The notes: generated from the letters alone by a model not told the origin. A DNA stretch of 64,000 nucleotides from Eledone cirrhosa (GCA_964016885.1 OZ024741.1:238204001-238268000); one strand, 5' to 3'. Positions 1 through 46,204 are shown, counted from the stretch's first letter. Program-made: numbers and translations.

Positions 1-2028
1 AGATGTATCATTACTAACAAACAGTGTTAGTATGATAACAGTTGTTGCTGATTGAACTGGAGTACCACCATCTTTCACTATAAACTGTAGGTCATATGTT
101 CCTGCATCATTTTGGTAAACTGTCCGAGAGAAAGATAAGACACCAGTGTGGGAGTTGACTGTAAACAGGTTTTTATCATTAGATCTCAGTATTCCATATG
201 TGAGGAAAGCATTGTTTCCAGTGTCTTTGTCAGAGGCTTTCAGAATTGTGATGTCTTTCTTACTGTGTGGATGGTAGTGGACATCTAGATTGTAAGGGTC
301 ATTAATAGGAAAGGTAAAATAGGGAGCATTATCATTTTTATCTAGAATCTCAATAACAATATTGGCAGTGTCATTCAGAGAAGGTGTTCCATTATCTTTG
401 ACTAAAACCTGGAAATTATAGATGTCTTTTACTTCCCGATCTATTGATTGTGATGTAGAAATGAATCCATATTTTGTAAGTTGGAAAGGAATGTTATCAT
501 TGTTGTTATCATTGATGATAGAATATGTGAGTTGACCTCCATCTTCAAGATCAGGGTCTGTAGCATTGATGAAGCCAATAGGAAAGTCAACTTTCTGGTT
601 TTCATAGGTGAGGAATTGGAATGTATCTTTGGTAAAATGTGGCTGTACATCATTGACATCAGTTACTTTCACTGAGAAATATTTCTTAGTTTCTAGTTGA
701 GGTGATCCCATGTCATGACATGCAATAGATACTTTATAGTGGTCCTTTATTTCTCTATCAAGATGTCCCTTAATAATCATTTTATATTCTTTAAAATCTA
801 TTTTGACAAGTTTAAATTTATCATGTTTTAAGTCACAGCTAACCTCACCATTAGGTCCAACATCAGTGTCAGTGACCATAACATAAGCTATAAAACTATC
901 TAGTTCACTGTCTTCTGAAACTGTTGTGGAACTTTCTGTTAAAGGTGATACAAAATCTATATTTATCAATGGAGCATTATTCTGGTTATTGATTATGTAA
1001 ATATGAACTGTAGTTACAGAACTTAACGAGGGATTTCCTTGATCTTGTACTTCAATATATAAATTGTAAGTCTGTTTCCTGCCTAAAGTAAAACTATCTT
1101 TTAAATATATTTCCCCATTTGTTTCTTTCAATAAAAAATGTTTTAGTGAATGAATGGAAGTTTTATGGTTGAAATGATAAGAAATCTTTCCGTTGTTTCC
1201 AGAATCTAAATCCGTGGCTTTTAAAGTAAGAATTGGTAAATGTCTTTGATGTGAATTTTTTATAGATATGTTGTAGACTTTCTGTGAAAATACAGGTGTG
1301 TTATCATTAACATCTGTCACATCTATGAGTACCTTGAGTGTAGCTGTTTGGGGAGGGTCCCCTCCATCTTTAGCTTCAAGTGTCAACATATATGATTTCT
1401 TTAGTTCCCTGTCTAATTTATCTTTTAGACTCAGTCCTGGAATGAGGATGCCATCATGTCGTTTTGTCATATACAAAGAAAATGGGTTTCTTTCCTGTGT
1501 CACTATTCTATATGTAATTTGTGAATTTATGGTGGTAATATCTCTATCTATGGCAAATGGAATTATCTTTCTCGTTCCTTTAAAACTGTCCTCAGCAAAT
1601 TGAACAGTGATTTTGTCAACAGAAAACTCTGGGGAATGGTCATTGATGTCTTCAATGATTATCTTGAGTTTTAACATCTTCATAAATGTTTTTCCTTTCC
1701 TCACTGCTACTTTAACAATTCTGGAACATTCCTTGTTATATGTACACAGTGACTCAGCATCTAGTGTCTGTGTAGTATATAGTTTTCCTGTGTTGGTGAC
1801 ATTGAATAAGTTAGAACCACTTGACACCGTCCTTTGTAGTTGTGTAAATGTAATGAGAGTGTGTTGTTGATGTGTAAGAGAGTGTGTTAAGTTAGAATCA
1901 ACAGCAATGTCTCCTATATAGGTGTGAGGACTGTCATTTTCATTGACATGGTATGTAATGTCAGCAGATACTATAACAGACTGTTGTAAATATAGTAAAC
2001 ACACCAGGTAAATGATATTTCCACTCAT
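1..2028 (-). CDS. Protocadherin P1, large exon, 3'-truncated by window edge (signal peptide, EC1-EC6)
   Basis: ATG at 2028 (MSGNIIYLVCLLYLQQ). Colinear with P5 with no net indel (same 2027-nt offset to the matching base). Motifs LCTYNKEC, DINDHSP, LDRE and DVNDNTP are present. Absent from the ORF track because its stop lies outside the window. Confidence 0.93.
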   Translation of the reverse strand, partial: MSGNIIYLVCLLYLQQSVIVSADITYHVNENDSPHTYIGDIAVDSNLTHSLTHQQHTLITFTQLQRTVSSGSNLFNVTNTGKLYTTQTLDAESLCTYNKECSRIVKVAVRKGKTFMKMLKLKIIIEDINDHSPEFSVDKITVQFAEDSFKGTRKIIPFAIDRDITTINSQITYRIVTQERNPFSLYMTKRHDGILIPGLSLKDKLDRELKKSYMLTLEAKDGGDPPQTATLKVLIDVTDVNDNTPVFSQKVYNISIKNSHQRHLPILTLKATDLDSGNNGKISYHFNHKTSIHSLKHFLLKETNGEIYLKDSFTLGRKQTYNLYIEVQDQGNPSLSSVTTVHIYIINNQNNAPLINIDFVSPLTESSTTVSEDSELDSFIAYVMVTDTDVGPNGEVSCDLKHDKFKLVKIDFKEYKMIIKGHLDREIKDHYKVSIACHDMGSPQLETKKYFSVKVTDVNDVQPHFTKDTFQFLTYENQKVDFPIGFINATDPDLEDGGQLTYSIINDNNNDNIPFQLTKYGFISTSQSIDREVKDIYNFQVLVKDNGTPSLNDTANIVIEILDKNDNAPYFTFPINDPYNLDVHYHPHSKKDITILKASDKDTGNNAFLTYGILRSNDKNLFTVNSHTGVLSFSRTVYQNDAGTYDLQFIVKDGGTPVQSATTVIILTLFVSNDTS

Positions 2029-2339
2029 GGCTGCAACTCTTCCTTCCTCATTACTGAATATTCCTATAAGTATAATAGCAATGTTTTATTATAAGTAGAG
2101 TGAAGCCATTTCCATGAAAATTTATTTGAAATAATACTTATTCACCAAGATATGGATTAAAACAATTTAAATATATTTTATTACCAATTTAATATAAATA
2201 CATCTATATCAATAAAATATTTTTACGCGTAAAATCAACATAAATAATTTGACTTTAGAGTTATCTCCCCTAGACGTTTTATTACTGCAATATTTTGTCG
2301 TTAGTATTTTTCCCACTAACTGTAAATATTAATGTGTAT

Positions 2340-3170
2340 GTTTTATGTATAATAGCCGAAATTTCGATAGCTCTTAACTCTTTTCTAATAAAAACAAAAC
2401 ACACTATTAAAAGGGAACAAAAAGAGAACGAAAAAAAAAGAAAAAGAAAGAAGGATCAAGCAACAAAAGAAAGGGAGAGGGGGAGGGACAGACACTACAC
2501 CCCAATCTGAGCGGTACCTGAGGCACGCCCCGCTTACAATATGGCAAAAGCATTACTGTAGAGAATGGCCAGAGACAACCACTGCAACAGCCACCTCACG
2601 GGGCTCCCTCATAAAGCGGGCCGCCGTCTTTTCGACTGTACAGAGAAAATCAGCAGTGCAGGGACCAAGTACACCAAAAGTCAGGACACAGTATTTGGTT
2701 GGTCAGGCCACTGTATTTGACTATCTCTCTCTTCTGCATTGCAGGCTGCAGAGCCCAGGTTTGTGGCAAAAGCTACAAGGATAGAGACAGAGAACATGTT
2801 GCTGCATATCGCATCCCCAATTAGGGATTTGTCCCCCTCAAAAAAGAAGCGAGTTAATCCATCAGAGCACTTGCCATCACCATGGTCGAGGCCAGCTGGC
2901 TCCAATTGTGATGAGAGACCAGCTGTATTGAGGCTCCTTCTAATGATGTCGTTCAAAGCAGTATGAAGGGGGAGCTATCCTGCACTAAAACAGCTAGATA
3001 ATGGGTGCAAACCAAACTCGTCGACCACTGCACTAAAACGGCATTTGTGTGACTCACACACATGGAGACAGAGATACTGTGCCTCTCCAATGTGGATGCA
3101 GTTCACATCGAGAAGGGTAACGGTTGATGAAGAGGGCACCAAATGGAGCCAAGTTCCACTATTTGGTTGT
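2340..3170 (-). mobile_element. Decayed 3' end of a CRE-like (RLE) non-LTR retrotransposon
   Basis: Translation NDIIRRSL..LEPAGLDHGDGK.SDGLT and downstream WLLQWLSLAIL.SNA match the C-terminal restriction-like endonuclease region of CRE-type elements. Stops and frameshifts present. Confidence 0.6.
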
Positions 3171-5394
3171 GAGATGGAAAGTACACAGGTGAGACGGCAA
3201 TGGTATGAGGAAGAAAGTATTATTCCTAAGTTAGTAATTTTATATTTGAATAGGCAATTGAAATAAATTTATCTTGTAAAGCACACTCAATGAAATTTAC
3301 CTGTATTATATTTTTGATATTGAGTTCTATATTAGTTAGAGACAACTCTCTTTTTCTCACACTATATCCAATGCTCCAACTATACTCAGAGCAAATTTTC
3401 TTCAGAGAAATTCTATGTGAAGTGTAAACATAAAAATGGAGCCTTACATTCTGAATATGATCAATGGAAAAACTTCAATCACCTGAAACTATACTCACAA
3501 TTTCAAGAATGAAATTTCTTTTCGGAGCGTTCAGACCTCTTTTGTATCTATACACTTCATGAATTTTCACCTCTACCCATTGTTGACACACATAATCAGT
3601 GCATAAATTCTTTCCTCCTTCCTTTATATTTTTTGGAAGGTGGGAAGCAGTCGGTTAATAGACTCTGTACTTGACTGGTATTTTATTTACTGTATATACA
3701 CATATATAAGCCAAGAAATATGTCACAAAAAACAAATCAATGGTAAAATGGGGTTTGACATATATTCAAAATCAATATTTTGTTGATTATCACCAATTTA
3801 AAAATTCTACATAAATGAGGTGAATATTACGCCGGTTTCACTTTCAAAGTGAATTTTGTATTTCCTATTGTTTTTGATGTTTTGAATGAACATGACCTTC
3901 AAAATGGTCAGAAATTGTTAAAAAAAAAAATAATCATTACGTAATGGAGTTGTGAAACAAAAACTATACTCTGAATGACACTTACTTTTTAAATATTAAA
4001 ATATTAAAACTTCATAAATATATTTTACAGTCATGAGAATTTCAAAACCGCACCATCTAAATGCGATGTGTTGATTATCTGCCTCAGCTTTTAAATGGGG
4101 TTTGGATTATATTCGAGTATATATTGTAAGCAACCCTGGAAGGGTAAAAGGCAAAAGTAACCATGGCGGGATTTGAACTCTGAACTTAAAGATCCAGAAC
4201 AAATAGCAATAAAAATAATTAACAGCACTATCCATCGTTATGTCCATAGAACCCACATGTCTATCCTGGTTAATATTCCTAACACCTAATCATTCTTTCA
4301 ATAACTTACTGCTACATTTTTCAAGCAAGTAACTGTACACATCCCTAAAATACTATTTTAATAATTTCATCGCTACCCTTGCTGGACTGCCACATTCAAT
4401 ACACCACAATGTCTCTCTACAATGCATCACCACATCATTTCATAGAGTCTCATTTTAACTTTTGCCATCTTTTTTGTTTTACCCTACCTATCAATCTTTC
4501 ACAACAATCTCTAGCACTAATTAGATCAACTAGATAGCAGAAAATATAAACTACCTCAAGTGAGTCATCTGATCAGTTCAAGGGATCTTCCAGTATTAAC
4601 TACTCCTATAACATCAGTGATGGGATGCCAGCTTTTAAAACATCCTACCGACACTATCCATCAAAAGACACTATCCCGTCAAAAAATGTTTCATTTATAT
4701 GGCACCATTGCCAATGAGAAGACACTACCAATACAACGTTCTCATCAATTTCAACAATGTAGATTCTCTTAAATGTTAATGTTGAAATATATAAAGCAGG
4801 GGAGAACAGTTCTTTATCTCTAGCTTTAATATATATCTTACATAATGACTGTTTTAACAAATACTGATTTATAAGAGAAATCATTACAATTCTGTAATAT
4901 ATCGATGTTTTACATTTCAGAATACCTAAACCATGTGATGTATTCAAGTGCTAATGAAATATTGTACTGATTTTATGAATTTTACATAATAAGGCAGATG
5001 TGTAAATGTTTCAAGTTTAACAAAATATCTATCTAATATTTCCTCGTATTTACAAATCAAATAACTGTGTTGTTAAGAAGTTTACTTCACAACCATGTGC
5101 TTCCAGATTCGATTCTATGGTACAGCACCTTCAGCAAGTGTCTTCTACTATAGCCAAATGATCTTTTTGCTTTGTGGGTGGAATTTGGTATTGAGAAACT
5201 ACAGAAGTCACTTGCGAGTTCATGTGCATGAGGATGGGTGTATATGCATGTGTATGTGTCCATGCCTCTGTATATAGTTTAAAAACTGCTGTTGTTTATG
5301 TTTTGATACCTTATGTCTCATACGCAAGCAGTTTGAAAAATAAAGATTGATAAACTGATTGTGGTTAAAACCAGTAAAAGAATAAAACAATAAA

Positions 5395-6065
5395 TAATAC
5401 TGGTTTATAATTTAGGCTCAAGGACAGTCATTTGGAGGGAGAGTAAAATTGATTACATCAACTTGATTGGTACTTTATTCTCTCCTCTTTGAAAAGATGG
5501 AAAAGTTAACCTTGGTGGGATTTGAACTCAAAACGTAAAGAGTTGTAATTAAATATTGCAAAGCATGTTGTCTGGTGTAGAAATTCTGCCAATCCAACAC
5601 TTGAAGTAATAACAGTTTCTAATTTAGGCACTAGGCTAGCAATTTTATGGGAGAGAAAGTTGATTTAATTGACTAGGTATATGCTGGTAAATTATTTCAC
5701 TGAACCTGGAAGGATAAAGGGCAAAATTGACCTTGATGGAATTTGAATTCAAAATTTAAAGAGCCAGACAAAATGCTTGTTAGAGGGTTGGATATAATGT
5801 TTTGCAAACATTTTGTCCAACAGTCTTAGGATTTGGCCAATCAACTTGTATGATAATAATTTCTACTTAAGGCACAAAGCTAGTAATTTGAGAGGAAGGG
5901 CAAAGTTGATTAAAATGACCCCAGTAATTGACTGGTACTTTATATTGTTGAGCCCAGAAGGATGAAAGGCAAAGCTGACCACAGTGGAATTTGAATTCAA
6001 AACATAAAAGGTTGTAACTATATTCTGAAAAGCATTTTGTCTGATGTTCTACTTATATTATCGAT
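5395..6065 (-). repeat. Three tandem degenerate copies of a ~210-250 bp tRNA-derived CORE-like SINE
   Basis: The motif gaaaggatgaaaggcaaag..gacc..ggaatttgaa(c/t)tcaaaa repeats three times. Same family as 39222-39404. Further fragments near 3630-3690, 4130-4200 and 6490-6600. Confidence 0.7.
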
Positions 6066-7969
6066 TTACTTGCATAATAACATTCCCATATCAAAGATAG
6101 AATTAAAAGATACAAAATAATGAATTCTAGAAATAAATTAAAATGAAATATAAAATCCAAACACCAAGTTGCAATAACATAGAGTTATTGATGTGGTCGC
6201 TGTTGTTATTGTTGCAATGAAATAGTTATTGTTGTTGCAATAACAATGTTGTAATAACAGAGATATTGAGGTTGTTGGTGCAATGATTGTGTCAGCATGT
6301 TGTAATAACACAAGTTATTGATATTGTAGTTGTGGCAACATTTTTGTCTATACATTGACACTAAACAATTACTAACAATCATAAATATAAAACAAGAATT
6401 TTCATATATCAAAGAGGAACATTGAATACAGAACAATGATATTGTCACGTGTAGTCATTAAAACATGGTAAATTGAGCAAATTAAATGGCTCATAGTGTT
6501 TTTTCTGGTTCTCTGCACTATGAGTTCAAATCCCTCTATGATCTCTCATCTTTTCAGGGTTGATAAATAAAGTACCAGTCAAGAATGGTGGATTGACAGA
6601 TTTTTTTTTTAGAGCTACAAAGGAAATGCCTTGTGGTATTTGTTTCGGCACTGTGCATTCTAATCCAACACTCTATTATATAATGACATGCTAAGAGTGG
6701 GGCCCCTGTAAATAGCACACAAGAATCATCTGGATTGGTACCACAAGGGTTAAAGTATAATTAAAATTAAATATCAGTACCAGCAAAAATATAAGCTGAA
6801 GTGTTCACCAATTGACACTAAAAGGAGATAAGTCTCATGAAACAATGCCCATTAGAACATCATCCAAAATAATTTAATTCTTATAGGCAAGAAAATACAA
6901 CAGAAAATGGCACATAAAACATTGATTTATATCATATCATAAATTATTTCTTGTTTAATTTTCTATCATACACTGTGTTCCACCATTTTGTATGTAAATC
7001 TTTTTTTTATAATCAACTGTGGTGAAATGAGATATTTCTTCTTGTTGTTAAGGTTGTAATTCAACTATCCAATTTAATAATAATGTATCTATGGGGTTAT
7101 ATATTTATTTTCTTGAGCATAACCTTGTATAAAATCTCTCACTTGCTATTTATTTTTTCTTTCTCACTCTTATGACTTTAATAACAAATCTTCTCTCCTG
7201 TTCCTCATAGAAGCTCTGCTAAGAGAGAAAGAGACAGAAGGAGAAAGAGAAATGGACTGAACACGAGGGAGAGAGATAATGCATAATAGAATATGATTTT
7301 CATGACTAGCGAAAGAGAGAAAAGGGGAAGAGATAGATAAATAGACAGATAGATAGATAGAGAGAGGGAAGGAGACTAAAGAAAGAAGAGAAACAAAGAA
7401 AAAAAATATTAGAAAGGGAAATCGAGAGATATAGAGAAAGTGAGACACATATCCAGAGAGACAGAGAGAGATTCAGGGAAAGAGAATTAGAGTAAAAGAG
7501 GAACAGTGGAAATAATTCCCTAATGGTGTACATTTAGAAGGATTTCAATGATCAGTTAGTTATCCATCTATCTAGGAAACCTCTTCATGCTTCCACTTCA
7601 ATTCATCCTTTGGTGGGGCTTTAAATTTCATAGAATGTTTGGCTATTCCTTCATATAAGTGATGCACATATTTAATATATATGTAAATCACCATCAATTT
7701 TGATGGTACGGACTAGTTTGCATATATTGACCTATACAAAGAAGATTGTCTATTAAAGAAATCATATAAACCAATATATCAGAAACACAATCTTGAAACT
7801 TAAATATACACTACAGAAGATTAATAAATATTTTCCGAAATTAGAATTCTCTATTTAAACTACATTATAAAGATATTAATAAAATATTTTAGAACAATAT
7901 TTATAAGACATATATTGGTTGTTGACAATTTTGTGTGTTACATGGGGGTATAAAAATGTTTTAGAGGTA

Positions 7970-7973
7970 GCTG

Positions 7974-8005
<32 letters not shown>

Positions 8006-8008
8006 TTG

Positions 8009-8058
<50 letters not shown>

Positions 8059-8089
8059 CACACACACATACATACATACATATATATAG

Positions 8090-8122
<33 letters not shown>

Positions 8123-8268
8123 CACATATATATATACACACACACATAACATTTCAGACATTTTAGATATAACTTTACCCAGTGATTCTATACATATACA
8201 CAATATATATATATATATATATATATAGATAGATATATATATATATATAAATCTTAAAATGAAAATGG

Positions 8269-8305
<37 letters not shown>
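7970..8305. repeat. Compound microsatellite (TAC)n/(TA)n/(CA)n/(GA)n
   Basis: Directly visible simple repeats. Confidence 0.95.
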
Positions 8306-8308
<3 letters not shown>

Positions 8309-8315
8309 GACATAC

Positions 8316-8680
8316 CTGCATTGTTTAATCCTTTTCCGTAGTTGTGTGATGGATGATGCGTATCCAGTTGAAGTGTTCCACTGTAACTGCTGCTACTGTT
8401 ATGGTGGTGTTATAGTGAGTGTAACTGCTGCTACTTTTAGAGTGGTGTGGTAATGTAACTACTACTGAATAATTTTACTCTTACTGCTAATTTAGTATTG
8501 TTCCAATAACATTCCTGTTATGTAGTGTTCTAGTGTGACTGCTAATGCAGTAGTGTGACAGTAACTATATGTAGTAGGAGGTGGGATATAAGCCAGATGG
8601 TGTTGGGGTGATAGTTACAACACTATGTCTTCCACACACACAATAGTGTGTATCAGGAACAAAGAAAAAAGCTATCAGCC
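8316..8680 (-). other. Putative 5' leader exon of P1 (donor after 8316; splices to acceptor at 2063)
   Basis: Block conserved once per repeat unit, ending AACAATGCAG|GTATG. Acceptor cttatag|G lies 35 nt upstream of the P1 ATG. The 5' boundary is approximate. Confidence 0.7.
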
Positions 8681-9919: not shown

Positions 9920-10067
9920 CTGGTTGTGCAGATATCTCTTCATATGGTTTAGTCTTGCCAATACTCTTGTAACCTTCTCTGCTTTTTTGTGATGTTAAGG
10001 TGTCACTGTTGTAGTTAGACATGCTGAGACTGCTGCGACCTTCATGACTATGGATTGAATCACATCT
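9920..10067 (-). CDS. Protocadherin P2 cytoplasmic exon, 148 nt (RCDSIHSHEG...KPYEEISAQP)
   Basis: atccacag|AGA acceptor and CCAG|GTAACT donor. Open in phase 0. Same length in all six complete copies. Confidence 0.85.
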
Positions 10068-10324: not shown

Positions 10325-12724
10325 CTGTGGAACTGGTGGAAGTCTCCTTTGTGTTGTTGAGAATTTCCACTCGTCTGGTAGCTGTTCCATCTCTGGATAA
10401 AACTGACCTTTAGATTTTATTGTCTGAAGATTTCTGTTAAATATCTCTTCTGCATTTCTGGTTATTGCAACAGGATTGTTAGTTTGATACAATAATTGTC
10501 TCATCTCAGTCTGAGACAGAAAGTTTGGATTATCTGCTGTTGTAGGTGAGTTATTGGTGTGATTAATACATCTGAAAACACACAGTGTTATTGACACTAC
10601 AATAGCCACAGATATTATTACAGCTGCTGCTACAATGATAATTACCCAAGTCATATTGAGATCATTACCAGACTGTAAGTGGACAGCATTCAACATTGGA
10701 GATGTATCATTACTAACAAACAGTGTTAGTATGATAACAGTTGTTGCTGATTGAACTGGAGTACCACCATCTTTCACTATAAACTGTAGGTCATATGTTC
10801 CTGCATCATTTTGGTAAACTGTCCGAGAGAAAGATAAGACACCAGTATGGGAGTTGACTGTAAACAGGTTTTTATCATTAGATCTCAGTATTCCATATGT
10901 GAGGAAAGCATTGTTTCCAGTGTCTTTGTCAGAGGCTTTAAGAATGGTGATGTCTTTCTTACTGTGTGGATGGTAGTGGACATCTAGATTGTAAGGGTCA
11001 TTAATAGGAAAGGTAAAATAGGGAGCATTATCATTTTTATCTAGAATCTCAATAACAATATTGGCAGTGTCATTCAGAGAAGGTGTTCCATTATCTTTGA
11101 CTAAAACCTGGAAGTTATAGATGTCTTTTACTTCCCGGTCTATTGATTGTGATGTAGAAATAAATCCATATTTTGTAAGTTGGAAAGGAATAATATCATT
11201 GTTGTTATCATTGATGATAGAATATGTAAGTAGACCTCCATCTTCAAGATCAGGGTCTGTAGCATTGATGAAGCCAATAGGGAAGTCAACTTTCTGGTTT
11301 TCATAGGTGAGGAATTGGAATGTATCTTTGGTAAAATGTGGCTGTACATCATTGACATCAGTTACTTTCACTGAGAAATACTTCTTAGTTTCTAGTTGAG
11401 GTGATCCCATGTCATGACATGCAATAGATACTTTATAGTGGTCCTTTATTTCTCTATCAAGATGTCCCTTAACAATCATTTTATATTCTTTAGAATCTAT
11501 TTTGGTAAGTTTAAATTTATCATGTTTTAAATCACAGCTAACCTCACCATTAGGTCCAACATCAGTGTCAGTGACCATAACATAAGCTATAAAACTATCT
11601 ATTTCACTGTCTTCTGAAACTGCTGTGGAACTTTCTGTCAAAGGTGATACAAAATCTATATTTATCACTGGAGCATTATTCTGGTTATTAATTATGTAAA
11701 TATGAACTCTGGTAACAGACTTTAGGGGAGGTTTGCCCTCATCTTGTGCATCAATAAACAATTTATAAGATTGCATCTTGCTAACGTGAAAATTATCATG
11801 TAAATACAACTCTCCAGTTTTCTTATCTAATACAAAATATTTCTGGACATTTCGAGATGTTTTATGGTTGAAATGATAAGAAATCTTTCCATTGTCTCCA
11901 GAATCTAGATCTGTGGCTTTTAATGTAAGAATTGGTAAATGTCTTTGATGTGAATTATTTATAGATATGTTGTAGACTTTCTGTGAAAATACAGGTGTGT
12001 TATCATTAACATCTGTCACAGCTATGTGTACCTTGAGGGTAGCTGTCTGTGGAGGGTTCCCTCCATCTTTAGCTTCAAGTGTCAACATATATGAGTCTTT
12101 TATTTCCCTGTCTAATTTATCTTCTAAATTTAGGGCTGGTATGAAGACACCATCATCTTGTTTTGTGACAAAAAGAGAAAATGGTTCTTTCTTACTTTTT
12201 CTTATCATGTATGTAATTTGAGAATTCTTTATTGAAATATCTTGGTCAATGGCATTTGGAAGAAGATTTTTAGTCCCTTTACTATCTCTCTCTAGAAATT
12301 CAATTGTAACTTCATTCACTGGAAATTCTGGTGAATGATCATTGATGTCTTCTATAAATATTTTTATTTTAAGAATTTTCATGAAGGTTTTTCCCTTCCT
12401 CACTGCTACTTTAACAATTCTGGAACATTCCTTGTTATATGTACACAGAGACTCAGCATCCAGTGTCTGTGTAGTGTATAGTTTTCCTGTGTTGGTGACA
12501 TTGAATAAGTGAGAACCACTTGACACCGTCCTTTGCAGTTGTGTAAATGTTATGAGAGTGTGTTGTTGATGTGTAAGAGAGTGTGTTAAGTTAGAATCAA
12601 CAGCAATGTCTCCTATATAGGTGTGAAGACTGTCTTCTTCATTGACATGGTATGTAATGTCTATAGACAGTACAAGGTTTATCAATAAATGTAGTAGACA
12701 GAGTAGACCAATATATGTTGTCAT
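10325..12724 (-). CDS. Protocadherin P2 large exon (800 codons; SP, 6 EC, TM, proximal tail)
   Basis: Cadherin motifs DxNDxxP, LDRE and DxD; EC1 C-x5-C; TM WVIIIVAAAVIISVAIVVSITLCVF; donor CAG|GTAAAT after PVPQ. Confidence 0.96.
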
Positions 12725-14452
12725 GTCTGGAATTCTTCATCACACTTTAGCTGTAGAAATGTCTACAAAAGACAACTCAAATATTTAAATTCTATGTAAC
12801 AAATATAATATCAAATCATTTTAGAAACCATTTTAAAATGATGTTTCTATTACTAATTACACTCTGGCCTAAGCCCACATAATATTGCTGATATACCTCT
12901 AAAATATCTCAAATTTCAAGGAATTATTGTATTTCCCAGGAGTTTAAATTAGTGGGAACTATGCAAATTACTCATAATTATAAGACATAATTAATACATA
13001 ATGACTTAAAAATACATCTTCAGGAAAACATTGTTTTAATAAGGAAGTTATTAAAGAACAGTGATAAGTAAAGAAAACCAAAGTGTTCATAGAATTTTAG
13101 TTGACTCTAATCAGAACAGATATAATGGGTAGTCTTCAAGTGAAATTTAATCAAGGGAGTTTCAGATTCAGGACATGATAACTTGGATTTAGTCAATCAA
13201 TATATTCATCTAATAATTTATTTTAAACAAGAATTTCCATATTCTCTAGCCCTTCGCCAATTTCTTGTTACTTAATCTTGCTTTTAATTTTTTTTCATAT
13301 TTATGTAACCATCGATGATTTTTTAAGCCAACTTTGTGAATATTTATAATTGTGTTTACAAAATTATTGGAAATACTTTACAATAGTATTTTTTCTAAAT
13401 GATGATAAAATATTTCAGTGAATTTTGTTGTTGAAAAAAAATTATTATTTTAATAAAATATTTAAATTGTTTTATTAAATTAATTACAAGAAAAATAAAA
13501 ACAATTTTTATATATGATATGTAAAGTTTATATTATACTGCTACATTTAAAATAATTCCTGGTAAGATTTGTTACTAACAACTATAATGTAATATACCTC
13601 ATTTTTACAAACATCAATATTACTATTTCTTAACAAATTTATAATATACATCTATTATTGTTAGAATTAATATCTTTTAACAACACATAACAATATCCTC
13701 AGTTTATATATCACACTAAATATGGTAAAATACTTAGATTAAATTATATTTATCATTTTAATAAACAAAGAAATATATAATGTATATTTACTGAGATATA
13801 TAAGATAGTAATGATCTTGTAGACTTCATTAAAGCTAAAGAAGGATTAACATTTAATTACTGATTTATTACACAAAACAGCGATACAAATTTCACAACAT
13901 AGCTTATTAACATCCACTTTTACAGTCAATGTTTTCTCAGAGTTAAATAAAGCTATACACCATGTTTGAAATATATTATTCAAATATAGATTTCAATATA
14001 CAGTAGCAGTATATTTATAGATTAATATCTCTTGTACAATGTGTCTTGTGTGATTCTGACATTAAAATATGTAGTCTTTCTAGAATTGTACTAATACAAC
14101 TGCAGTTGTTTTCAATGATATAAATGATGATAAGATCTCTCTATCCTCTATTGTCTTCACCCTTTTAGATAAATATGATGATGATGACAACATGGCAAAC
14201 ATATTCAGCTTTGTTAGCTGCTGTATTAAATGGTGAAAAGGATAGTGAAATTTCTCTGTTTTCTACTGTCCCAGTCCCTATATAACTTGGGAGGCATGTT
14301 AGGTATTATCTTTGCTCTGTAATTCACTATAAATACATAATATATATGTTATAATGAATATGAAAATATAATACAGGTAGAGAAAGATGTAGATAGATAG
14401 ATAGTCAAATAGATAGATAGACCGAGAGAGAGACACAAACAGACAAATTTAC

Positions 14453-14790
14453 CTGCATTGTTTAATCCTGCACTGTAGTTGTGTGTGATGGATGATGTGT
14501 ATCCTGCTGTAGTATTCCAGTGTAACTGCTGCTACTGTCATGGTGGTGTTATTCCGTTACAGCTATTGTAGTAGCTTTCCAGTGTTACTACTACTATAGT
14601 AGTGATCCAGTGTAATAACTGCTGCTGTTGTTGTGTTCTAGTGTAACTGCTGATGTAGTAGTAAAATAGTGGCTGTGTGCAGTGGTGGTGGGATGTTAGC
14701 CAGATGGTGTTGGGGTGATAGTTACAACACTATGTCTTCCACACACACACAATTGTGTGTATCAGGAACAAAGAAAAAAGCTATCAGCCT
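14453..14790 (-). other. Putative 5' leader exon of P2 (splices to acceptor at 12762 or 12750)
   Basis: Conserved block ending ATGCAG|GTAAA; acceptor cttttgtag|AC. The 5' boundary is approximate. Confidence 0.7.
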
Positions 14791-14855
14791 CACTTTGAAT
14801 ATTGAAAGAAATATATAAAATCTCTCCCAGCCAATAAGAAATTACTGCAATGTTG
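14780..14855 (-). promoter_or_regulatory. Conserved promoter-like block of P2
   Basis: Same CCAAT/TATA-like block as 8671-8745. Confidence 0.6.
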
Positions 14856-18777: not shown

Positions 18778-21177
18778 CTGAGGAACTGGTGGAAGTCTCC
18801 TTTGTGTTGTTGAGAATTTCCACTCATCTGGTAGCTGTTCCATCTCTGGATAAAACTGACTTTTAGATTTTATTGTCTGAAGATTTCTAGCAAATATATC
18901 TTCTGCATTTCTAGTTATTGCAACAGGATTGTTAGTCTGATACAATAATTGTCTCATCTCAGTCTGAGACAGAAAGTTTGGATTATCTGCTGTTGTAGGT
19001 GAGTTATTGGTGTGATTAATACATCTGAAAACACACAGTGTTATTGACACTACGATAGCCACAGATATTATTACAGCTGCTGCTACAATGATAATTACCC
19101 AAGTCATATTGAGGTCGTTACCAGTCTGTAAGTGGACAGCATTCAACATTGGAGATGTATCATTACTAACAAACAATGTTAGTATGATAACAGTTGTTGC
19201 TGATTGAACTGGAGTACCACCATCTTTCACTATAAACTGTAGGTCATATGTTCCTGCATCATTTTGGTAAACTGTCCGAGAGAAAGATAAGACACCAGTG
19301 TGGGAGTTGACTGTAAACAGGTTTTTATCATTAGATCTCAGTATTCCATATGTGAGGAAAGCATTGTTTCCAGTGTCTTTGTCAGAGGCTTTCAGAATGG
19401 TGATGTCTTTCTTACTGTGTGGATGGTAGTGGACATCTAGATTGTAAGGGTCATTAATAGGAAAGGTTAAATAGGGAGCATTATCATTTTTATCTAGAAT
19501 CTCAATAACAATATTGGCAGTGTCATTCAGAGAAGGTGTTCCATTATCTTTGACTAAAACCTGGAATTTATAGATGTCTTTCACTTCCCGATCTATTGAT
19601 TGTGATGTAGAAATAAATCCATATTTTGTAAGTTGGAAAGGAATGTTATCATTGTTGTTTTCATTGATGATAGAATATGTAAGTTGACCTCCATCTCCAA
19701 GATCAGGGTCAGTAGCATTGATGAAGCCAATAGGGAAGTCAACTTTCTGGTTTTCATAGGTGAGGAATTGGAATGTATCTTTGGTAAAATGTGGCTGTAC
19801 ATCATTGACATCAGTTACTTTCACTGAGAAATATTTCTTAGTTTCTAGCTGAGGTGATCCCATGTCATGACATACAATAGATACTTTATAGTGGTCCTTT
19901 ATTTCTCTATCAAGATGTCCTTTAATAATTAAATTATATTCTTTAGAATCTATTTTGGCAAGTTTAAATTTATCATGTTTTAAATCACAGCTAACCTCAC
20001 CATTAGGTCCAACATCAGTGTCAGTGACCATAACATAAGCTATAAAACTATCTAGTTCACTGTCTTCTGAAACTGCTGTGGAACTTTCTGTTAAAGGAGA
20101 TACAAAATCTATATTTATCACTGGAGCACTATTCTGGTTATTAATTATGTAAATATGAACTCTGGTAACAGACTTTAGGGGAGGTTTTCCTTCATCACGT
20201 GCATCAATAAATAATTTATAAGATTGCATCTTACTAAAGTTAAAATTATCATGTAAAAATATCTCTCCAGTTTTCTTATCTAATACAAAATATTTCAGGG
20301 CATTTCGTGATGTTTTATGGTTGAAATGATAAGAAATCTTTCCGTTGTGTCCAGAATCTAAATCTGTGGCTTTTAAAGTAAGAATTGGTAAATGTCTTTG
20401 ATGTGAATTATTTATAGATATGTTGTAGACTTTCTGTGAAAATACAGGTGTGTTATCATTAACATCTGTCACAGCTATGTGTACTTTGAGGGTAGCTGTT
20501 TTGGGAGGGTTCCCTCCATCTTTAGCTTCAAGCATTAAGATATATGAGTCTTTTAGTTCCCTATCTAATTTCTCTTTTAAATTTAGGGCAGGTATGAAGA
20601 CACCATCATCTTGTTTTGTGACAGAGAGAGAAAATGTTTCGCTCTGACTTTTCTTTAACATGTATGTAATTTGAGAATTCTTTTTTGAAACATCTTGATC
20701 AATGGCATTTGGAAGAGAGATTTTATCTCCTTTACTGTCTCTCTCAAAAAATTCAATTGTAACTTCATTCTCTGGAAATTCTGGTGAATGGTCATTGATG
20801 TCTTCTATAAATATTTTTATTTTGATAATTTTCATGAAAGTTTTTCCTTTCCTTACTGCTACTTTAACGATTCTGGAACATTCCTTGTTATATGTACACA
20901 GTGACTCAGCATCCAGTGTCTGTGTAGTGTATAGTTTTCCTGTGTTGGTGACATTGAATAAGTGAGAACCACTTGACACTGTCCTTTGTAGTTGTGTAAA
21001 TGTAATGAGAGTGTGTTGTTGATGTGTAAGAGAGTGTGTTAAGTTAGAATCAACAGCAATGTCTCCTATATAGGTGTGAGGACTGGCTTCTTCATTGACA
21101 TGATATGTAATGTCTATAGACAGTACAAGGTCTATCAGTAAATATAGTAGACAGAGTAGACCAATATATGTTGTCAT
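18778..21177 (-). CDS. Protocadherin P3 large exon
   Basis: Same motifs as P2; donor CAG|GTAAAT at 18778. Confidence 0.96.
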
Positions 21178-21359
21178 ATCTGCAATTCTTCATCACACTT
21201 CAGCAGTAGAAATTTCTACAAAAGATATCAGTAGTATTTAAAGTCAAAGGAAAATTACATTAAAATATCTGATAAATATAGAAAATATTGTATAAAATAT
21301 ATTCCTATTCCGAATTACACTTCATTAAAGTCAAATGAAGAATTCAAATTAAACCATTT

Positions 21360-21880
21360 GGGATTTGGCAATCCATAATACAGTATATAAGTGGAGATAT
21401 CTGCTTGGAATGAACCATCAACTATTGTGGAATGGGATTTTCATTACAGTTAAAGAATGGGTGGAATACTTACTCCTTCATATAAGTTTATAACCACCAC
21501 CTCGTCTTTGAGTACTTTTTTGCACATTTAGCAAAGTTCCATGTGTGAGGAGTGAAGAATCTAATGTCTTTTATCCGAGGGTGAAAAAGGGGAGGTGGTA
21601 GCTGAATTTGCTAGGTTGCAGATAAAGTGATATCTGTAGTTTCTCTATATACCTCATTCTCAGGTTGCAGATAAAGTTATATCTGTAGGTTCTCTATATA
21701 CCTCACTATCAGATGAAGAGCAAAGACCAGACACACGGAAATTAAACTAATTAAATTATTCTCAAAGTTCTTCTATTGACTAACACTAGCCTACAACAAA
21801 GACCATCATCAGTTTCTTCAGATTCTAGATTCCCAACTGTCTTTAATGGAGTCCCTTTTGTTGTAATTATTCTGATCAGG
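21360..21880. mobile_element. Degenerate repeat shared with 28200-28590, possibly a Penelope-like terminal repeat remnant
   Basis: Block present in the first introns of P3 and P4 but not P2. Contains an internal ~45-bp direct duplication and a CAGATGA...GAAA motif. Confidence 0.35.
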
Positions 21881-22262
21881 CCACATAATATTGTTAATAT
21901 ATCTTTTAAATATTTCCAATATGAGGGGATTATTGCATTTCCCAGGAGTTTCAATTCCTGGGAAGTAAGTAATTATGATTAAAATTAGTCATAATTATTA
22001 AACATAATAAATACATCATGACTTAAACATACATCTTCAGGAAAAAATTGTTTTATGAAGGAAGTTATTAAAGAACAGTGATAAGTAAGGAAAACCAAAG
22101 TGTTCATAGAATTTTAGTTGACTCTAATCAAAACAGAAATATTAGGTAGTCTTAAAGTAAAATTTAATTAAGGGAGTTTCAGATTCACGACATGACAACT
22201 TGGATTTAGTCAATCAATATATTCATCTAATAATTTATATTAAACTACAACCCACATTAGAA

Positions 22263-22740
22263 TTACTAGCAGAAACACCACCCGAAGGGTGGTTTTCTGC
22301 TGGCAGGTGTAATGCGCATATTGATATTATATGCATGTAGATATGATACATCAAATAAAATCGTAATTGATAATATACACAGAAATTGAACGAAGACTGT
22401 GTTACACTGTCTTATGTAATCAGTAACGTAATCCATGATACATTAAAAAAAGATGATATTATATATAAACCGCATTAGGAGAAAATTAGTGACGGAAATA
22501 AATGGATGTTTATTTAAGAGATCGCTAACAAGTGTCGACATTTGAAAATTTTAAAGAAGTGAATCTTAAAATAAGCCACAAAATTATTTATATTTAATCA
22601 AGAATAACGAAATTTAGTAGATAAATTATGTAATATTCATTCATTATTTATTCAAAGTAATCCAACTTATTTTACAAACGGGATAAAAAAACATATTCTG
22701 GACGCAGTCCCACACTCCTTACTTTATCATAGTTTAGATA
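22263..22740 (+). mobile_element. Non-autonomous Helentron/DINE-like element
   Basis: Begins ACTAGC plus hairpin agcagaaacaccacccgaagggtggttttctgct. Absent from the matching P2 intron. An inverted copy lies at 38530-39050. Confidence 0.55.
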
Positions 22741-23885
22741 GAAATTATTAAAATCTGACATAGTAGAATTACTAAGAAAAACAGAATAGTTTACAAAATT
22801 ATGTTGAAAAACCTTATAATTATATTTCTTCTAGATACAAAGATAAAATATTTTAGTGAATTTTGTTAATGAAAAAAAAATTATTTTAATAAAATATTTA
22901 AATTGTTTTATTAAATTAATGACAAGAAAAATAAAAACCATCTTTATATATGATATGTAAAGTTTATATGATACTGCTACATTTAAAATAATTCCTGGTA
23001 AGATTTGTTACTCACAACTATAATATACCTCATTTTTTACAAACAACATAATACTATATCTGAGCACTTCTTAACAAATATATAATATACATCTATTATT
23101 GTTAGAATTAAACACATAACAATATCCTCAGTTTATATATCACTAAATATGGTAAAATATATAGATTAATTTATAATTCATTGTTTTAATAAACAAAGAA
23201 ATATATAATGGATGTTTACTAAAATATATAGGATAGTAATGATCTTGTAGACTTTATTAAAGCTAAAGAAGGATTAACATTTAATTACTGATTTATTACT
23301 AAAAACAGATATAAACTTCATAACATAGCTTATTAACATCCACTTTTACAGTCAATGTTTTCTCATAGTTAAATAAAGCTATACACCATGTTTGAAATAT
23401 ATTATTCAAATATAGATTTCAATATACAGTAGCAATATATTTATAGATTAATAGCTCTTGTACAATGTGTCTTGTGTGATTCTGACATTAAAATATGTAG
23501 TCTTTCTAGAATTGTACTAATACAACTGCAGTTGTTTTCAATGATATAAATGATGATAAGATCTCTCTATCCTCTATTGTCTTCACCCTTTTAGATAAAT
23601 ATGATGATGATGACAACATGGCAGACATATTCAGCTATGTTAGCTGCTATATTAAATGGTGAAAGGGATTGTGAAATTTCTCTATTTTAGTCTCTATATA
23701 ACTTGGCAGGTATTTTAGGTATTATCTTTGCTCTGTAATTCACTATAAATACATAATATATATGTTATGAATATGAAAATATAATACAGGTAGAGAAAGA
23801 GGTAGATAGATAGATCGATAGACAGATTCAGAGAGAGGGAGAGAGACACAGACAGACTAAGAAAGAGGAAGTGGGAGAAATTTAC

Positions 23886-24222
23886 CTGCATTATTTAATC
23901 ATTCACTATAGTTGTGTATGATGGATGATGTGTATTCTGGTGTAGTATTCCAGTGTAACTCCTGCTACTGTCATGGTGGTGTTATTCTGTTACAGCTATT
24001 GTAGTAGCCTTCCAGTGTTACTACTACTATAGTAGTGATCCAGTGTAATAACTGCTGCTGTTGTTGTGTTCTAGTGTAACTGCTGATGTAGTAGTAAAAT
24101 AGTGGCTGTGTGCAGTGGTGGTGGGATGTTAGCCAGATGGTGTTGGGGTGATAGTTACAACACTATGTCTTCCACACACACACAATTGTGTGTATCAGGA
24201 ACAAAGAAAAAAGCTATCAGCC
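23886..24222 (-). other. Putative 5' leader exon of P3 (splices to 21215)
   Basis: ATGCAG|GTAAA donor; acceptor cttttgtag|AA. The 5' boundary is approximate. Confidence 0.7.
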
Positions 24223-25651: not shown

Positions 25652-28051
25652 CTGAGGAACTGGTGGAAGTCTCCTTTGTGTTGTTGAGAATTTCCACTCA
25701 TCTGGTAGCTGTTCCATCTCTGGATAAAACTGACTTTTAGATTTTATTGTCTGAAGATTTCTAGCAAATATATCTTCTGCATTTCTAGTTATTGCAACAG
25801 GATTGTTAGTCTGATACAATAATTGTCTCATCTCAGTCTGAGACAGAAAGTTTGGATTATCTGCTGTTGTAGGTGAGTTATTGGTGCGATTAATACATCT
25901 GAAAACACACAGTGTTATTGACACTACAATAGCCACAGATATTATTACAGCTGCTGCTACAATGATAATTACCCAAGTCATATTGAGGTCATTACCAGAC
26001 TGTAAGTGGACAGCATTCAACATTGGAGATGTATCATTACTAACAAACAGTGTTAGTATGATAACAGTTGTTGCTGATTGAACTGGAGTACCACCATCTT
26101 TCACTATGAACTGTAGGTCATATGTTCCTGCATCATTTTGGTAAACTGTCCGAGAGAAAGATAAGACACCAGTATGGGAGTTGACTGTAAACAGGTTTTT
26201 ATCATTAGATCTCAGTATTCCATATGTGAGGAAAGCATTGTTTCCAGTGTCTTTGTCAGAGGCTTTCAGAATTGTGATGTCTTTCTTACTGTGTGGATGG
26301 TAGTGGACATCTAGATTGTAAGGGTCATTAATAGGAAAAGTAAAATAGGGAGCATTATCATTTTTATCTAGAATCTCAATAACAATATTGGCAGTGTCAT
26401 TCAGAGAAGGTGCTCCATTATCTTTGACTAAAACCTGGAATTTATAGATGTCTTTCACTTCCCGATCTATTGATTGTGATGTAGAAATAAATCCATATTT
26501 TGTAAGTTGGAAAGGAATGTTATCATTGTTGTTATCATTGATGATAGAATATGTAAGTTGACCTCCATCATCAAGATCAGGGTCTGTAGCATTGATGAAG
26601 CCAATAGGGAAGTCAACTTTCTGGTTTTCATAGGTGAGGAATTGGAATGTATCTTTGGTAAAATGTGGCTGTACATCATTGACATCAATTACTTTGACAA
26701 AGAAATATTTCTTAGTTTCTAGTGGAGGTGATCCCATATCATGACATACAATAGATACTTTATAGTGGTCCTTTATTTCTCTATCAAGATGTCCCTTAAT
26801 AATTACATTATATTCTTTAGAATCTATTTTGGCAAGTTTAAATTTATCATGTTTTAAGTCACAGCTAACCTCACCATTAGGTCCAACATCAGTGTCAGTG
26901 ACCATAACATAAGCTATAAAACTATCTAGTTCACTGTCTTCTGAAACTGTTGTGGAACTTTCTGTTAAAGGAGATACAAAATCTATATTTATTACTGGAG
27001 CATTATTCTGGTTATTAATTATGTAAATATGAACTGTAGTAACAGACTTTAAGGGAGGTTTTCCTTCATCACGTGCATCAACGAATAATTTATAGGATTG
27101 CATCTTACTAAAGTGAAAATTATCATGTAAAAATATCTCTCCAGTTTTCTTATTTAATATAAAATATTTCAGTGCATTTCGAGATGTTTTATGGTTGAAA
27201 TGATAAGAAATCTTTTGATTGTCTCCAGAATCTAGATCTGTAGCTTTTAATGTAAGAATTGGTAAATGTCTTTGATGTGAATTATTTATAGATATGTTGT
27301 AGACCTTCTGTGAAAATACAGGTGTGTTATCATTAACATCTGTCACAGCTATGTGTACCTTGAGGGTAGTTGTTTTGGGAGGGTTCCCTCCATCTTTAGC
27401 TTCAAGTATTAACATATATGAGTCTTTTACTTCTCTGTCCAATTTGTCCCTTAAATTTAGCTCTGGTATGAAGACACCATCATGTTGTTTTGTGACAGAG
27501 AGAGAAAATGGTTCTCTCTTACTTTTCCTTATCATATATGTAATTTGAGAATTCTTTATTGAAACATCTTGATCAATGGCATTTGGAAGAGAGATTTTGG
27601 CTCCTCTACTAGCTATTTCAGAAAATTCAATTTTAACTTCACTGTTGGGAAATTCTGGTGAATGGTCATTGATGTCTTCTATAAATATATTTATCTTGAG
27701 AATTTTCATAAAGGCTTTTCCCTTCCTTACTGCTACTTTAAGAATTCTGGAACATTCCTTGCTATATGTACACAATAACTCAGCATCTAGTGTCTGTGTA
27801 GTGTATAGTTTTCCTGTGTTGGTGACATTAAATAAGTGAGAACCACTTGACACTGTCCTTTGTAGTTGTGTAAATGTAATGAGAGTGTGTTGTTGATGTG
27901 TAAGAGAGTGTGTTAAGTTAGACTCAACAGCAATGTCTCCTATATAGGTGTGAGGACTGTCTTCTTCATTGACATGGTATGTAATGTCTATAGACAGTAC
28001 AAGGGTCATCAGTAAATGTAGTAGACAGAGAAGACCAACATATGCTGTCAT
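25652..28051 (-). CDS. Protocadherin P4 large exon
   Basis: Same motifs as P2; donor at 25652. Confidence 0.96.
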
Positions 28052-29499
28052 GTCTGCAATTCTTCATCACACTTTAGCAGTAGAAATATCTACAAAGACA
28101 AAAGAAATATTTAAATTCTTAGTAACAAATAAAATATCTGATAATTATAGGAACCATTGTGAAAATTATATTTTAAGATTAATTACAGTCCATTAAAGCC
28201 AACTGAAGAATTCAAATTAAACCATAGCCCTTCATCTAAGTTTAATTACACCATCTGGCCCTTGAGTTCTTTTCTCACATTTAGCAAAGTTCCATGTGTG
28301 AGGAGTGAATGTCTTTTATCTGAGTGATGGAGAGAGAGAGAGAATTGTGCTTTAGCTGAATTGACTAGGTTGCAGATAAAGTTATATCTGTAGGTTCTCT
28401 ATATACCTCACTATCAGATGAAGAGCAAAGACCAGACACACGGAAATTAAACTAATTAAATTACTCTCAAAGTTCTTCTATTGACTAACAATAGCCTACA
28501 ACAAAGACCATCATCAGTTTCTTCAGATTCTAGATTCCCAACTGTCTTTAATGGAGTCCCTTTTGTTGTAATTATTCTGATCAGGTGTCTGATCTGAGGA
28601 TGACCTATATTTATGTGTTGCTCTTTTTACAGCAGCAACTCATGAATTATAGTATCTTCCTACCTATCCTCATCTCAGAAGCCTTGTAAAAGCACGTGGA
28701 ACACAACAGTTTGTCCTCTGATACTAAAGGGCAATCTGAAACACATCAGACATAAACCCTGTAACAATCAATTAAAAATGTTAACAAATACAATTAGGCA
28801 AACATTTGTTTCCAACAAAGTACAAAACAAGAAGTAAAACCCTATACAAAGTAATTAGTACCATCAATCAATTTATGACCCCATTAAATACCATAATAAT
28901 ATAAACACTTTTTCTTACCAACTGGAAAAAAACAACACAAAGAAGATAGTAATACTGAATACGAAGAAACTCAACACCTTCACCTCGACGTTTGACCTGA
29001 CTAATTTCTTTTAACAGACAACAGAAAATTAAAACAAAAACTGCAATGTCTTCTAAAGTCTAAAGGAATTATTGAATTTCCCAGGATTTTTAATTATTGG
29101 TAACTAAGTAAATTAATCATAATTATATGACAATATATAATACCTTAAAAGTACATCTTAAGGAAAAAAACTATTTTATAAAAGAAATCATTAAAGAAAA
29201 TTTAAAGAAAAATTTAAGAAAACCAAAGTGTTTATAGAATTTTAGTTCACTCTAATCAGAACAGAAATACTCAAAAAAAAAAAAGAAAAAAAAAAAGATA
29301 TGGTTTAGTTAACCAAAATCTTCATACAATAGTTTATATTAAGCTAGAATTCCCATATTAGAATTATAGAAATTAAAATCTAACAGTGGTGTTAGTAACA
29401 AAATTATGTGGAAATATTTTTCTAGATGATAAAATAGCTCACTAAATGTTGTTGAGGAAAAAAAATTATTATAATATTATTTTTGAGCACTTCTTAACA

Positions 29500-29945
29500 A
29501 ATCTACAACATTCATGTATTTCTCGAGTTTTATTTATTCATCAAATTTCAATTCGGTTACATAATGTTTGCAATAGCAAAAAGAAAAAGAAAGAGGGAAA
29601 AAAATTAAATAACGAAAGTAAGGAAAAGGTTTAGGGGAAGGGAAGGGAGAAAGGCAATGTTTAAATAAAAGAAGAGAGGAAAAACAACTGTGTGGAACTT
29701 AAGGAATACCAAACAGTACTAAAAAACAAACAAACCAAATCCTAATTTAAAACAGTAAAGAAAATGTAAAGGAAGGGGTGAACAACCGAGCCAACATCAG
29801 AGCAAAAGATAGCAGCGAGGGGTACTGGGCAACCTCTCTAATGACTTTTGAGGCCAGCCAGCACACTCGCAGCGTTGCTTCGGGTGATGGCGAGGCTAAT
29901 GCGCTGGAACAGCCAAGCGCCCTCGCGAGATTCGCCAGTTACCTC
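29500..29945 (-). mobile_element. 3' fragment of a CRE-like LINE
   Basis: Minus strand reads VTGESREGAWLFQRISLAITRSNAASVLAG, typical of the CRE RLE C-terminus. GC-rich patch interrupting a conserved intron. Confidence 0.55.
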
Positions 29946-30664
29946 TATTATTGTCAGAATTAATATATTTTAAAAACACATAACAATATCCTCACACTAA
30001 ATATGGCAAAATATCTAAATTAAATTATATTTAACAACATTTTAATAATAATAAATATTCTTAATTTATCATATACAAAGAAATATATAATGGATATAAA
30101 TGATATTGGAAACTTCATTAAAACTAGAGAATGATTAAAATATCATTACTGAATTATTACAAAGTAGAAATAAACTACATTACATACACTATTAACATCC
30201 AGTTTTATTGACTTTTAATCAACGCTTTCTGACTGTTAAATAAAGCTTTACACCAACATTGAACTATATTACACAAATATAATTTTCAATATGCAGTAGC
30301 AATATATATAGATAAATATCTCTTGTATAATGTGTCTTGTGTGATTCTGACATTAAAATATGTAGTCTTTCTAGAATTGTACAAATACAACTGCAGCTGT
30401 TGTTATTAATGTTAGAAATGATGGCGAAATCTCTCTATCATCCACTGTCTATGGCAGACATATTCAGCCAGTATGTTAGTGGTTGTATTAGATGGTGGAA
30501 GGGATTGTAAGATTTCTCTATTTTCCACTGTCCTTTAGAGATATGCTTACGCCCTGGAGAATATATAGATATATATATATTCTATAATAAAACAATAATG
30601 GTAGAGAAAGAGGTAGATAGATAGATAAATGGAGAGGGAGAAAGAGAGAAAGAAAGACTCTTAC

Positions 30665-46084: not shown

Positions 46085-46204
46085 TGTATATGTGCAGGCA
46101 CACACAAACATATATATCTATTCCGTTTTTCCTCTTCTTACGTCTGTCTTCCTATTTTTTTCTATTGCTCATTCTATCTTCCAATGAATGACTAACGCCT
46201 AAAA

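Follow-up and report, generated by a model that had tools for sequence, protein, structure and literature searches.

Cephalopod protocadherins are known as fully duplicated multi-exon genes with gene conversion (PMC9068888; PMC9795677; PMC6339937; statements on these and all other cited papers refer to excerpts of them). In octopods, their arrays include bursts dated to 8–14 million years (Ma) ago (PMC9795677), and conversion has been seen in such arrays (PMC9068888). [quoted passage not shown] In mouse Adipoq, an overlapping uORF runs from exon 1 to exon 2, and its loss raises reporter output approximately threefold (PMC10501164). For reinitiation after short uORFs, the start is described as having to lie downstream and at some distance (PMC10275272; PMC5972666), and genome-wide the starts of uORFs are constrained while their coding regions are neutral (PMC7889888). 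Here we analyze a stretch of 64,000 nucleotides (nt) from Eledone cirrhosa (GCA_964016885.1 OZ024741.1:238204001-238268000; the window), which carries seven protocadherin genes in the same direction on the minus strand (P1–P7; P1 extends beyond the window start). Their predicted mRNAs contain an intron-split uORF that reaches over the main start codon out of frame. With evenly balanced confidence, we favor the reading that this uORF likely dampens protocadherin translation by capturing scanning ribosomes, and that the ATGA shared by uORF stop and main start in six of the genes is likely a by-product of the reading frame.

The gene model on which this reading builds starts from a conserved block that lies 1.7–10.6 kb upstream of each main exon and ends with ATG-(C/A)AG/GT, the last slash marking the predicted splice junction (Table 1). 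Among P1–P6 this predicted first exon is 74–97% identical; after the leader donor the alignment collapses into a microsatellite, and similarity returns at the acceptor. In all seven genes, the leader donor is the top match to MAG/GTRAGT (8–9 of 9 positions) when compared with 30–66 other GT sites within 400 nt on each side (119 nt upstream in the case of P7), and in P2 and P3 its nonamer equals that of a homologue-supported coding donor. Inside intron 1 of P2, no donor scoring at least 8 of 9 consensus positions was found. The observed/expected ratio of ATG in the first exon is 0.56, vs 0.79 on the antisense strand and 0.90 in the intron (six non-independent copies), and this depletion fits a genuine 5′ untranslated region (UTR). 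We regard the support for the gene model as indirect but decent, with the splice itself being predicted. Donor, acceptor, upstream ATG (uATG), frames, and stops are directly present in the DNA of all seven genes.

Two other exon structures were considered and are disfavored. Firstly, a hidden exon in intron 1 could begin at an AG shared after the microsatellite, but no conserved donor follows downstream, and donors scoring at least 8 exist only in the introns of P1 and P6 and are not common to both. Secondly, an acceptor two nucleotides before the main ATG (CAG in 7/7), which would yield a three-codon uORF with its stop at ATGA in each of the seven genes including P6, is unlikely, as the preceding 15 nt hold 2–6 pyrimidines vs 9–13 at the chosen acceptor. 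Inspection of the A/C-rich first exon by eye shows degenerate short repeats (14460–14700, minus strand); Tandem Repeats Finder reported no tandem array in the P2 leader exon, and with no Rfam match in the window the leader is not matched to a known RNA. Within the first 150 nt of intron 1 (e.g., 14300–14452), all copies have CT and AT microsatellites behind the leader donor.

On the predicted mRNA, the best acceptor lies 38 nt before the main ATG in P2–P5 and P7, 35 nt in P1, and 34 nt in P6; an alternative AG giving 26 nt is present in P2 only. The resulting uORF has 14–15 codons in six genes and stops at +1, with the TGA of ATGA as its stop codon. In P6 the frame is shifted, and the uORF extends over 42 codons to a stop at +86 in the coding region. 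A 5′-UTR AUG that is out of frame and has its stop inside the main coding sequence is thus found in 7/7 predicted mRNAs (+1 in six, +86 in P6). The first-pass annotation of this DNA had described the leader exon ends (ATG-CAG/GT, with ATG-AAG in P6), the acceptor distances, the uORF peptides, and an ATGA overlap in six of seven paralogs. The exon ends are confirmed in all seven genes and the distances likewise, P6 with its 34 nt being the exception; all listed peptides were reproduced, each stopping at +1 of the main ATG, and the overlap holds as a DNA pattern on the predicted splice.

In the damping reading, the first exon would be spliced to exon 2 in a transcript starting near the CCAAT block, and scanning ribosomes would initiate at the uATG, which has an A at −3 in all seven genes. 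Ribosomes that terminate at +86 in P6 or at +1 in the other six genes would mostly be lost, because termination lies past the main ATG. The main ATG would be accessed by leaky scanning, and protocadherin would thus be made by those ribosomes that skip the uORF. Alternatively, a farther-upstream uORF might be translated first and scanning resumed past the ATGs at −44 and −16, as in ATF4-like leaders. This reading is in line with the repression generally ascribed to overlapping uORFs and with the behavior of short uORFs in reinitiation (PMC10275272; PMC5972666), and the Adipoq uORF is a precedent for an overlapping uORF spanning two exons (PMC10501164). Of the splice-dependent translational control proposed in the first-pass annotation, damping stands as a plausible mechanism and the best explanation, while ATGA-coupled termination-reinitiation is unsupported (see below). 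Initiation at the uATG as the origin of an N-terminal protocadherin extension was rejected, as stops interrupt the main frame in six of the seven genes, and P1 lacks an upstream in-frame ATG. In P1 alone, the exon-2 UTR (2029–2063) has no stop in the main frame; its modeled leader (from 8316 upstream) is without an in-frame ATG.

The leaders of P1–P6 contain 3, 3, 4, 4, 5, and 9 uATGs; the first-pass annotation mentioned neither the one at −16 nor those near −127. A second conserved uATG, at −16, is present in P2–P7 (6/7) and opens an out-of-frame ORF of 33–34 codons that ends at +83 or +86. The Octopus sinensis gene model P0012 starts with the −16 frame (26 of 33 residues identical), so that the −16 ATG and ATGA are common to both species; from this model and the six Eledone copies it follows that other lengths of the overlapping ORF are tolerated. 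In the sister-subfamily models P0021, P0040, and P0041, a Met lies 5–6 residues before the Met-Thr aligned to the subfamily start, equivalent to an in-frame upstream ATG at −15/−18. Judged from these proteins, the −16 ATG could be of older origin, with a wandering frame. Farther upstream, a uATG at −127 occupies the same position in P2, P3, P5, and P7 and has counterparts close by in P4 and P6. Each of the seven genes has at least one uORF ending before the main start (at −25 or earlier), and these differ among the paralogs in place and length (2–34 codons). Considering the −16 uATG, the uATGs in the −127 region, and P6, what 7/7 genes have in common is a uORF that covers the main start out of frame; the 4-nt ATGA overlap is one version of this feature.

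How much the ATGA overlap itself demands explanation depends on its likelihood of arising by chance. A second codon of the main ORF starting with A forces the uORF stop to ATGA in this frame, and the overlap therefore needs just 12 stop-free codons. For a single ancestral gene, the chance of the layout is ∼0.045 (from 1/3 for the frame, ∼0.4 for A at +4, and 0.335 for twelve stop-free codons). No more than three classes are seen among the exon-2 UTRs (P2–P4, 87–92% alike; P5 identical to P7; P1 and P6, 82%), with 60–68% identity between classes. Within the uORF, 11, 11, and 8 substitutions fall on the three codon positions, and between classes the proportion of nonsynonymous differences (pN, 0.26–0.41) is close to that of synonymous ones (pS, 0.25–0.42; 10 pairwise comparisons, five copies). 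The uORF peptide is neutral, with no sign of purifying selection, and does not qualify as a conserved-peptide uORF, although a test on 13 codons has low power. This neutrality agrees with the genome-wide pattern of constrained uORF starts and neutral uORF coding regions (PMC7889888).

Several observations weigh against damping with ATGA as a mere by-product. In four schemes of column shuffling (20,000 shuffles each), a uORF frame without stops in all seven copies has P 0.016–0.046, a slight surplus over what a pure by-product would give. For the six copies other than P6 this value is 0.035–0.091, and for a stop-free state in any one frame 0.07–0.14, so that the excess beyond chance is modest and post hoc. 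Invariance at 10/11 columns of the block around the uATG, compared to a background of 47% (site-specific P 0.003), speaks for damping; without a preset location, however, P rises to 0.21 (best other window 9/11), and the block adjoins the splice donor. A second codon starting with A occurs in 21/24 close homologues with intact signal peptide vs 16/67 distant ones (after exclusion of 21/45 close and 8/75 distant sequences, 29/120 in total; 5/91 ambiguous). This bias leans towards selection on ATGA, yet close homologues share ancestry. Finally, protein databases yielded no usable model across the junction, which is weak evidence. Queries with the leader in the main frame and with the P6 overlapping frame found no match among longer proteins, the latter search missing even models of the P0012 type. 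The −127 frame had one weak match (E 2e-4, 20 residues, 33 repeated stretches in an 1874-residue protein) that is uninformative on the junction and was not used.

Of the competing explanations, an inherited accident survives best, though we consider it unlikely. According to this scenario, a donor-side ATG and an open frame arose in one ancestor and were copied by tandem duplication or conversion with little effect, and the conserved bases serve splicing and the context of the main start. The small number of sequence classes speaks for it, as do the two indel events, one of which kept the frame (P1, 3 nt) and one of which broke it (P6). Moreover, approximately 30 parsimony substitutions, with a stop risk of 5–10% (taken as ∼6% each), leave the frame open with a probability of ∼0.16. 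GAAGA and CAG at −5 to −3 are retained also in P6, whose uATG reads a different frame. We see in GAAGA a likeness to purine-rich splicing enhancers, and the G of CAG is presumably the purine at −3 of the main start. The EE-x-Q end, regarded as a kept peptide in the first-pass annotation, is accordingly better read as these two nucleotide motifs, with pN approximating pS and the same nucleotides standing in the other frame of P6. Repeated copying is also in line with the bursts (PMC9795677) and conversion (PMC9068888) described in octopod arrays. The accident does not account well for the persistence of the uATG and its A-rich context in 7/7 genes despite the depletion of ATG elsewhere in the exon. 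In addition, a uATG in good context 41–44 nt before the start is unlikely to be silent.

Damping also presupposes that the uATG is part of the mRNA. Improbable, in our view, is a different mRNA in which a donor-like site at 14793 or a downstream start skips the uATG, or in which the block ending in ATTAAA represents the 3′ end of the upstream gene. This donor-like AAA/GTGAGG (GT at 14793 in P2) matches 7/9 positions, is the second-best donor match in P1–P6, and lies within the most conserved block, the invariant 15-nt block near the putative transcription start. ATTAAA, which we take to be a possible poly(A)-signal variant as well, is invariant and followed by GT/CT-rich sequence, and since the duplication unit crosses gene boundaries, the block cannot be attributed to a single gene by phylogeny. 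However, the uATG donor beats every nearby GT in 7/7 genes, varies only inside the consensus, and sits where conservation ends. For each upstream gene, a separate AATAAA lies 241–790 nt past the stop codon (6/6), ahead of the leader block. Furthermore, the main exon requires an upstream exon, and across the introns no other aligned block has a conserved donor.

The 15-nt block lies 30 nt downstream of ATTGG on the gene strand, which we take to be a CCAAT box with a promoter role, and both are located ∼350–380 nt upstream of the leader donor end. Paralogous 15-nt blocks occur near 8684, 24226, 31004, 38245, and 55733. The block contains TTCAAAG, presumably a TCF/LEF-like motif, and is a candidate for a shared promoter element of this protocadherin subfamily. 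In P6, promoter and leader start are partially duplicated in tandem (∼55750–56050, minus strand); the distal copy is without the CCAAT box and retains the 15-nt block.

A selected coupling of uORF and main ORF appears more doubtful still. Here, ribosomes would end the uORF at ATGA, slip back by one base, and reinitiate, so that ribosomes are supplied by the uORF and the output depends on correct splicing. The frame open in all seven copies (shuffles above) speaks for it, the 3-nt indel of P1 and the alternative acceptor of P2 both preserve it, and in close homologues the A at +4 is retained through changes among Thr, Ser, Asn, and Ile. In P6, however, the indel broke the frame and the main ORF is intact (809 codons). 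The motif UGGGA, which we take to be the 18S-complementary motif 1 of the TURBS (termination upstream ribosome-binding site), is absent from the last 100 nt and from the whole modeled leader (0/7 each), and no stable RNA structure was detected in the last 100 nt (0/7; z −0.54 to +0.75 vs 100 shuffles each). The −16 uATG, equally conserved and in 6/7 genes a competitor for ribosomes, does not fit coupling either, and the termination-reinitiation suggested in the first-pass annotation is unsupported on these grounds. A viral precedent for a short uORF exists in the Borna disease virus X/P mRNA (8 codons, UGAUG; PMC2766071), but reinitiation after short uORFs is said to need a downstream start and distance (PMC10275272; PMC5972666). 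Coupling by some other route than TURBS has low odds. Most speculative, and very improbable, is a TURBS-free cellular termination-reinitiation switch, in which the splice-built uORF would hand ribosomes over at ATGA, the invariant upstream donor would give a uORF-free leader, and donor choice would set the surface dose of each paralog.

Table 1. Positions of the uORFs and associated features in the window, with P2 given in full.
Feature	Position	Strand	Evidence or remark
Main ATGs, P1–P7	2028, 12724, 21177, 28051, 35805, 44772, 62112	−	
Leader ATGs, P1–P7	8321, 14458, 23891, 30670, 37941, 55392, 63887	−	then CAG/GT (AAG/GT in P6)
P2 CCAAT box (ATTGG on gene strand), putative promoter element upstream of leader	14831..14835	+	same place in P1–P6
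15-nt invariant block near putative transcription start	14789..14803	−	7/7 aligned copies (P1–P6 and P6 duplicate)
P2 predicted non-coding first exon	14453..14804	−	∼350 nt; 5′ end estimated, 3′ end = donor
P2 uATG at −127	14539..14541	−	34-codon uORF ending at −25 after splicing
ATTAAA just 5′ of P2 uATG, A-rich start context	14461..14466	−	invariant 7/7
P2 uATG and second codon, end of first exon	14453..14458	−	uORF codons 1–2; phase-0 junction
P2 predicted intron 1	12763..14452	−	1690 nt, GT..AG
P2 exon-2 5′ UTR	12725..12762	−	38 nt, uORF codons 3–15; alternative AG gives 26 nt
P2 second conserved uATG at −16, 33-codon out-of-frame ORF ending at +83	12639..12740	−	present in P2–P7
P2 ATGA, overlap of main start and uORF stop	12721..12724	−	
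P2 main coding exon, with signal peptide, cadherin repeats, and transmembrane segment	10325..12724	−	Pfam PF00028 and PF08266; homologue
P2 cytoplasmic coding exon A	9920..10067	−	tblastn with homologue C-terminus
P2 last coding exon B including stop codon	9682..9761	−	tblastn with homologue C-terminus
P1 uORF span	2025..8321	−	uATG 8321, intron 8315–2064, 35-nt UTR, main ATG 2028; 14 codons, stop +1
P3 uORF span	21174..23891	−	uATG 23891, intron 23885–21216, 38-nt UTR, main ATG 21177
P4 uORF span	28048..30670	−	uATG 30670, intron 30664–28090, 38-nt UTR, main ATG 28051
P5 uORF span	35802..37941	−	uATG 37941, intron 37935–35844, 38-nt UTR, main ATG 35805
P6 uORF, exception	44684..55392	−	uATG 55392, intron 55386–44807, 34-nt UTR, main ATG 44772; 42 codons, ends +86
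P7 uORF span	62109..63887	−	uATG 63887, intron 63881–62151, 38-nt UTR, main ATG 62112

At the protein level, P2 shares 87% identity with a protocadherin of Octopus sinensis and 85% with one of Argonauta hians; its ectodomain consists of Pfam cadherin repeats and an N-terminal Cadherin_2 domain, and signal peptide and membrane segment were identified by eye. All six genes whose 3′ end lies inside the window have one large coding exon and two small, homologue-matched cytoplasmic exons. They are full multi-exon copies, each with its own exons A and B, and have no shared constant exons. The end of the P7 first exon (63882–64000) is 96% identical to that of P2 (14453–14571), and its exon-2 UTR is identical to that of P5 (35806–35843), which suggests a mosaic ancestry of P7 by conversion or unequal crossover between paralogs.

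Intron 1 of P6 (10.6 kb) harbors an element of the long interspersed nuclear element (LINE) type at 46638–48951 (minus strand), with endonuclease (PF03372/PF14529) and reverse transcriptase (PF00078) domains in separate frames. A reverse-transcriptase fragment (PF00078) at 40653–41300 (plus strand) lies antisense to P6 in the intron after its large exon. The intron after the large exon of P3 contains a GC-richer insert (42–46%, ∼16130–18690), pieces of which match repeats at 51.6–59.4 kb and which looks like a decayed retroelement.

The array as such resembles the octopod tandem protocadherin arrays described previously, in which the genes likewise stand head to tail, have several exons, are duplicated in full, and show mosaic ancestry; the excerpted passages on them are silent on 5′ non-coding exons and uORFs (PMC9068888; PMC9795677; PMC6339937). 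Our literature search retrieved no report of uORFs in octopus protocadherins, most subscription journals being outside its scope. The underlying question is how cephalopods, with well over a hundred protocadherins that are full duplicates, set their dose; the cited papers describe how many copies exist and how they are arranged rather than their leaders. Concrete handles on dose control are offered by the promoter block, the non-coding first exon, and the overlapping uORF common to the copies. Ordinary damping by a uORF would be a small addition. Cellular AUGA coupling without TURBS, if true, would matter for the translation field, and P1 and P6 form a natural test pair.

As modeled, the mRNA is a leader of the overlapping-ORF (oORF) type and neither a conserved-peptide uORF nor a TURBS system, each of which fails a defining test. 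An AUGA stop-start overlap is common to the octopod genes and to the TURBS-dependent caliciviruses and influenza B (PMC10275272), and 6/7 genes have stop and start overlapping or within ∼20 nt of each other, as in TURBS systems. The octopod upstream ORF, however, has 14–15 codons instead of being a long gene, lacks UGGGA and structure, and in one paralog lacks the overlap. The Borna disease virus X/P mRNA resembles the leaders in having a short uORF with a stop that overlaps the start behind it, but that case is viral, uses UGAUG, and was tested by mutation, whereas the octopod one is cellular, uses AUGA, is intron-split, and is predicted from sequence (PMC2766071).

Leaders of the ATF4 type combine an upstream uORF with an overlapping inhibitory uORF. 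The seven octopod leaders are similar in that all have an upstream-ending and an overlapping uORF, but their upstream uORFs vary in place and length (2–34 codons), spacing is short, and no fixed design is apparent (PMC5972666). The closest likeness in layout is to mouse Adipoq-type oORFs (PMC10501164): in both, the uATG is in exon 1 and the stop in exon 2, the uORF runs out of frame over the start of a signal-peptide protein, and its peptide is unconserved. Compared to Adipoq, the overlap in six of the octopod genes is minimal (4 nt), the uATG lies six bases from the donor, and the case is built on sequence.

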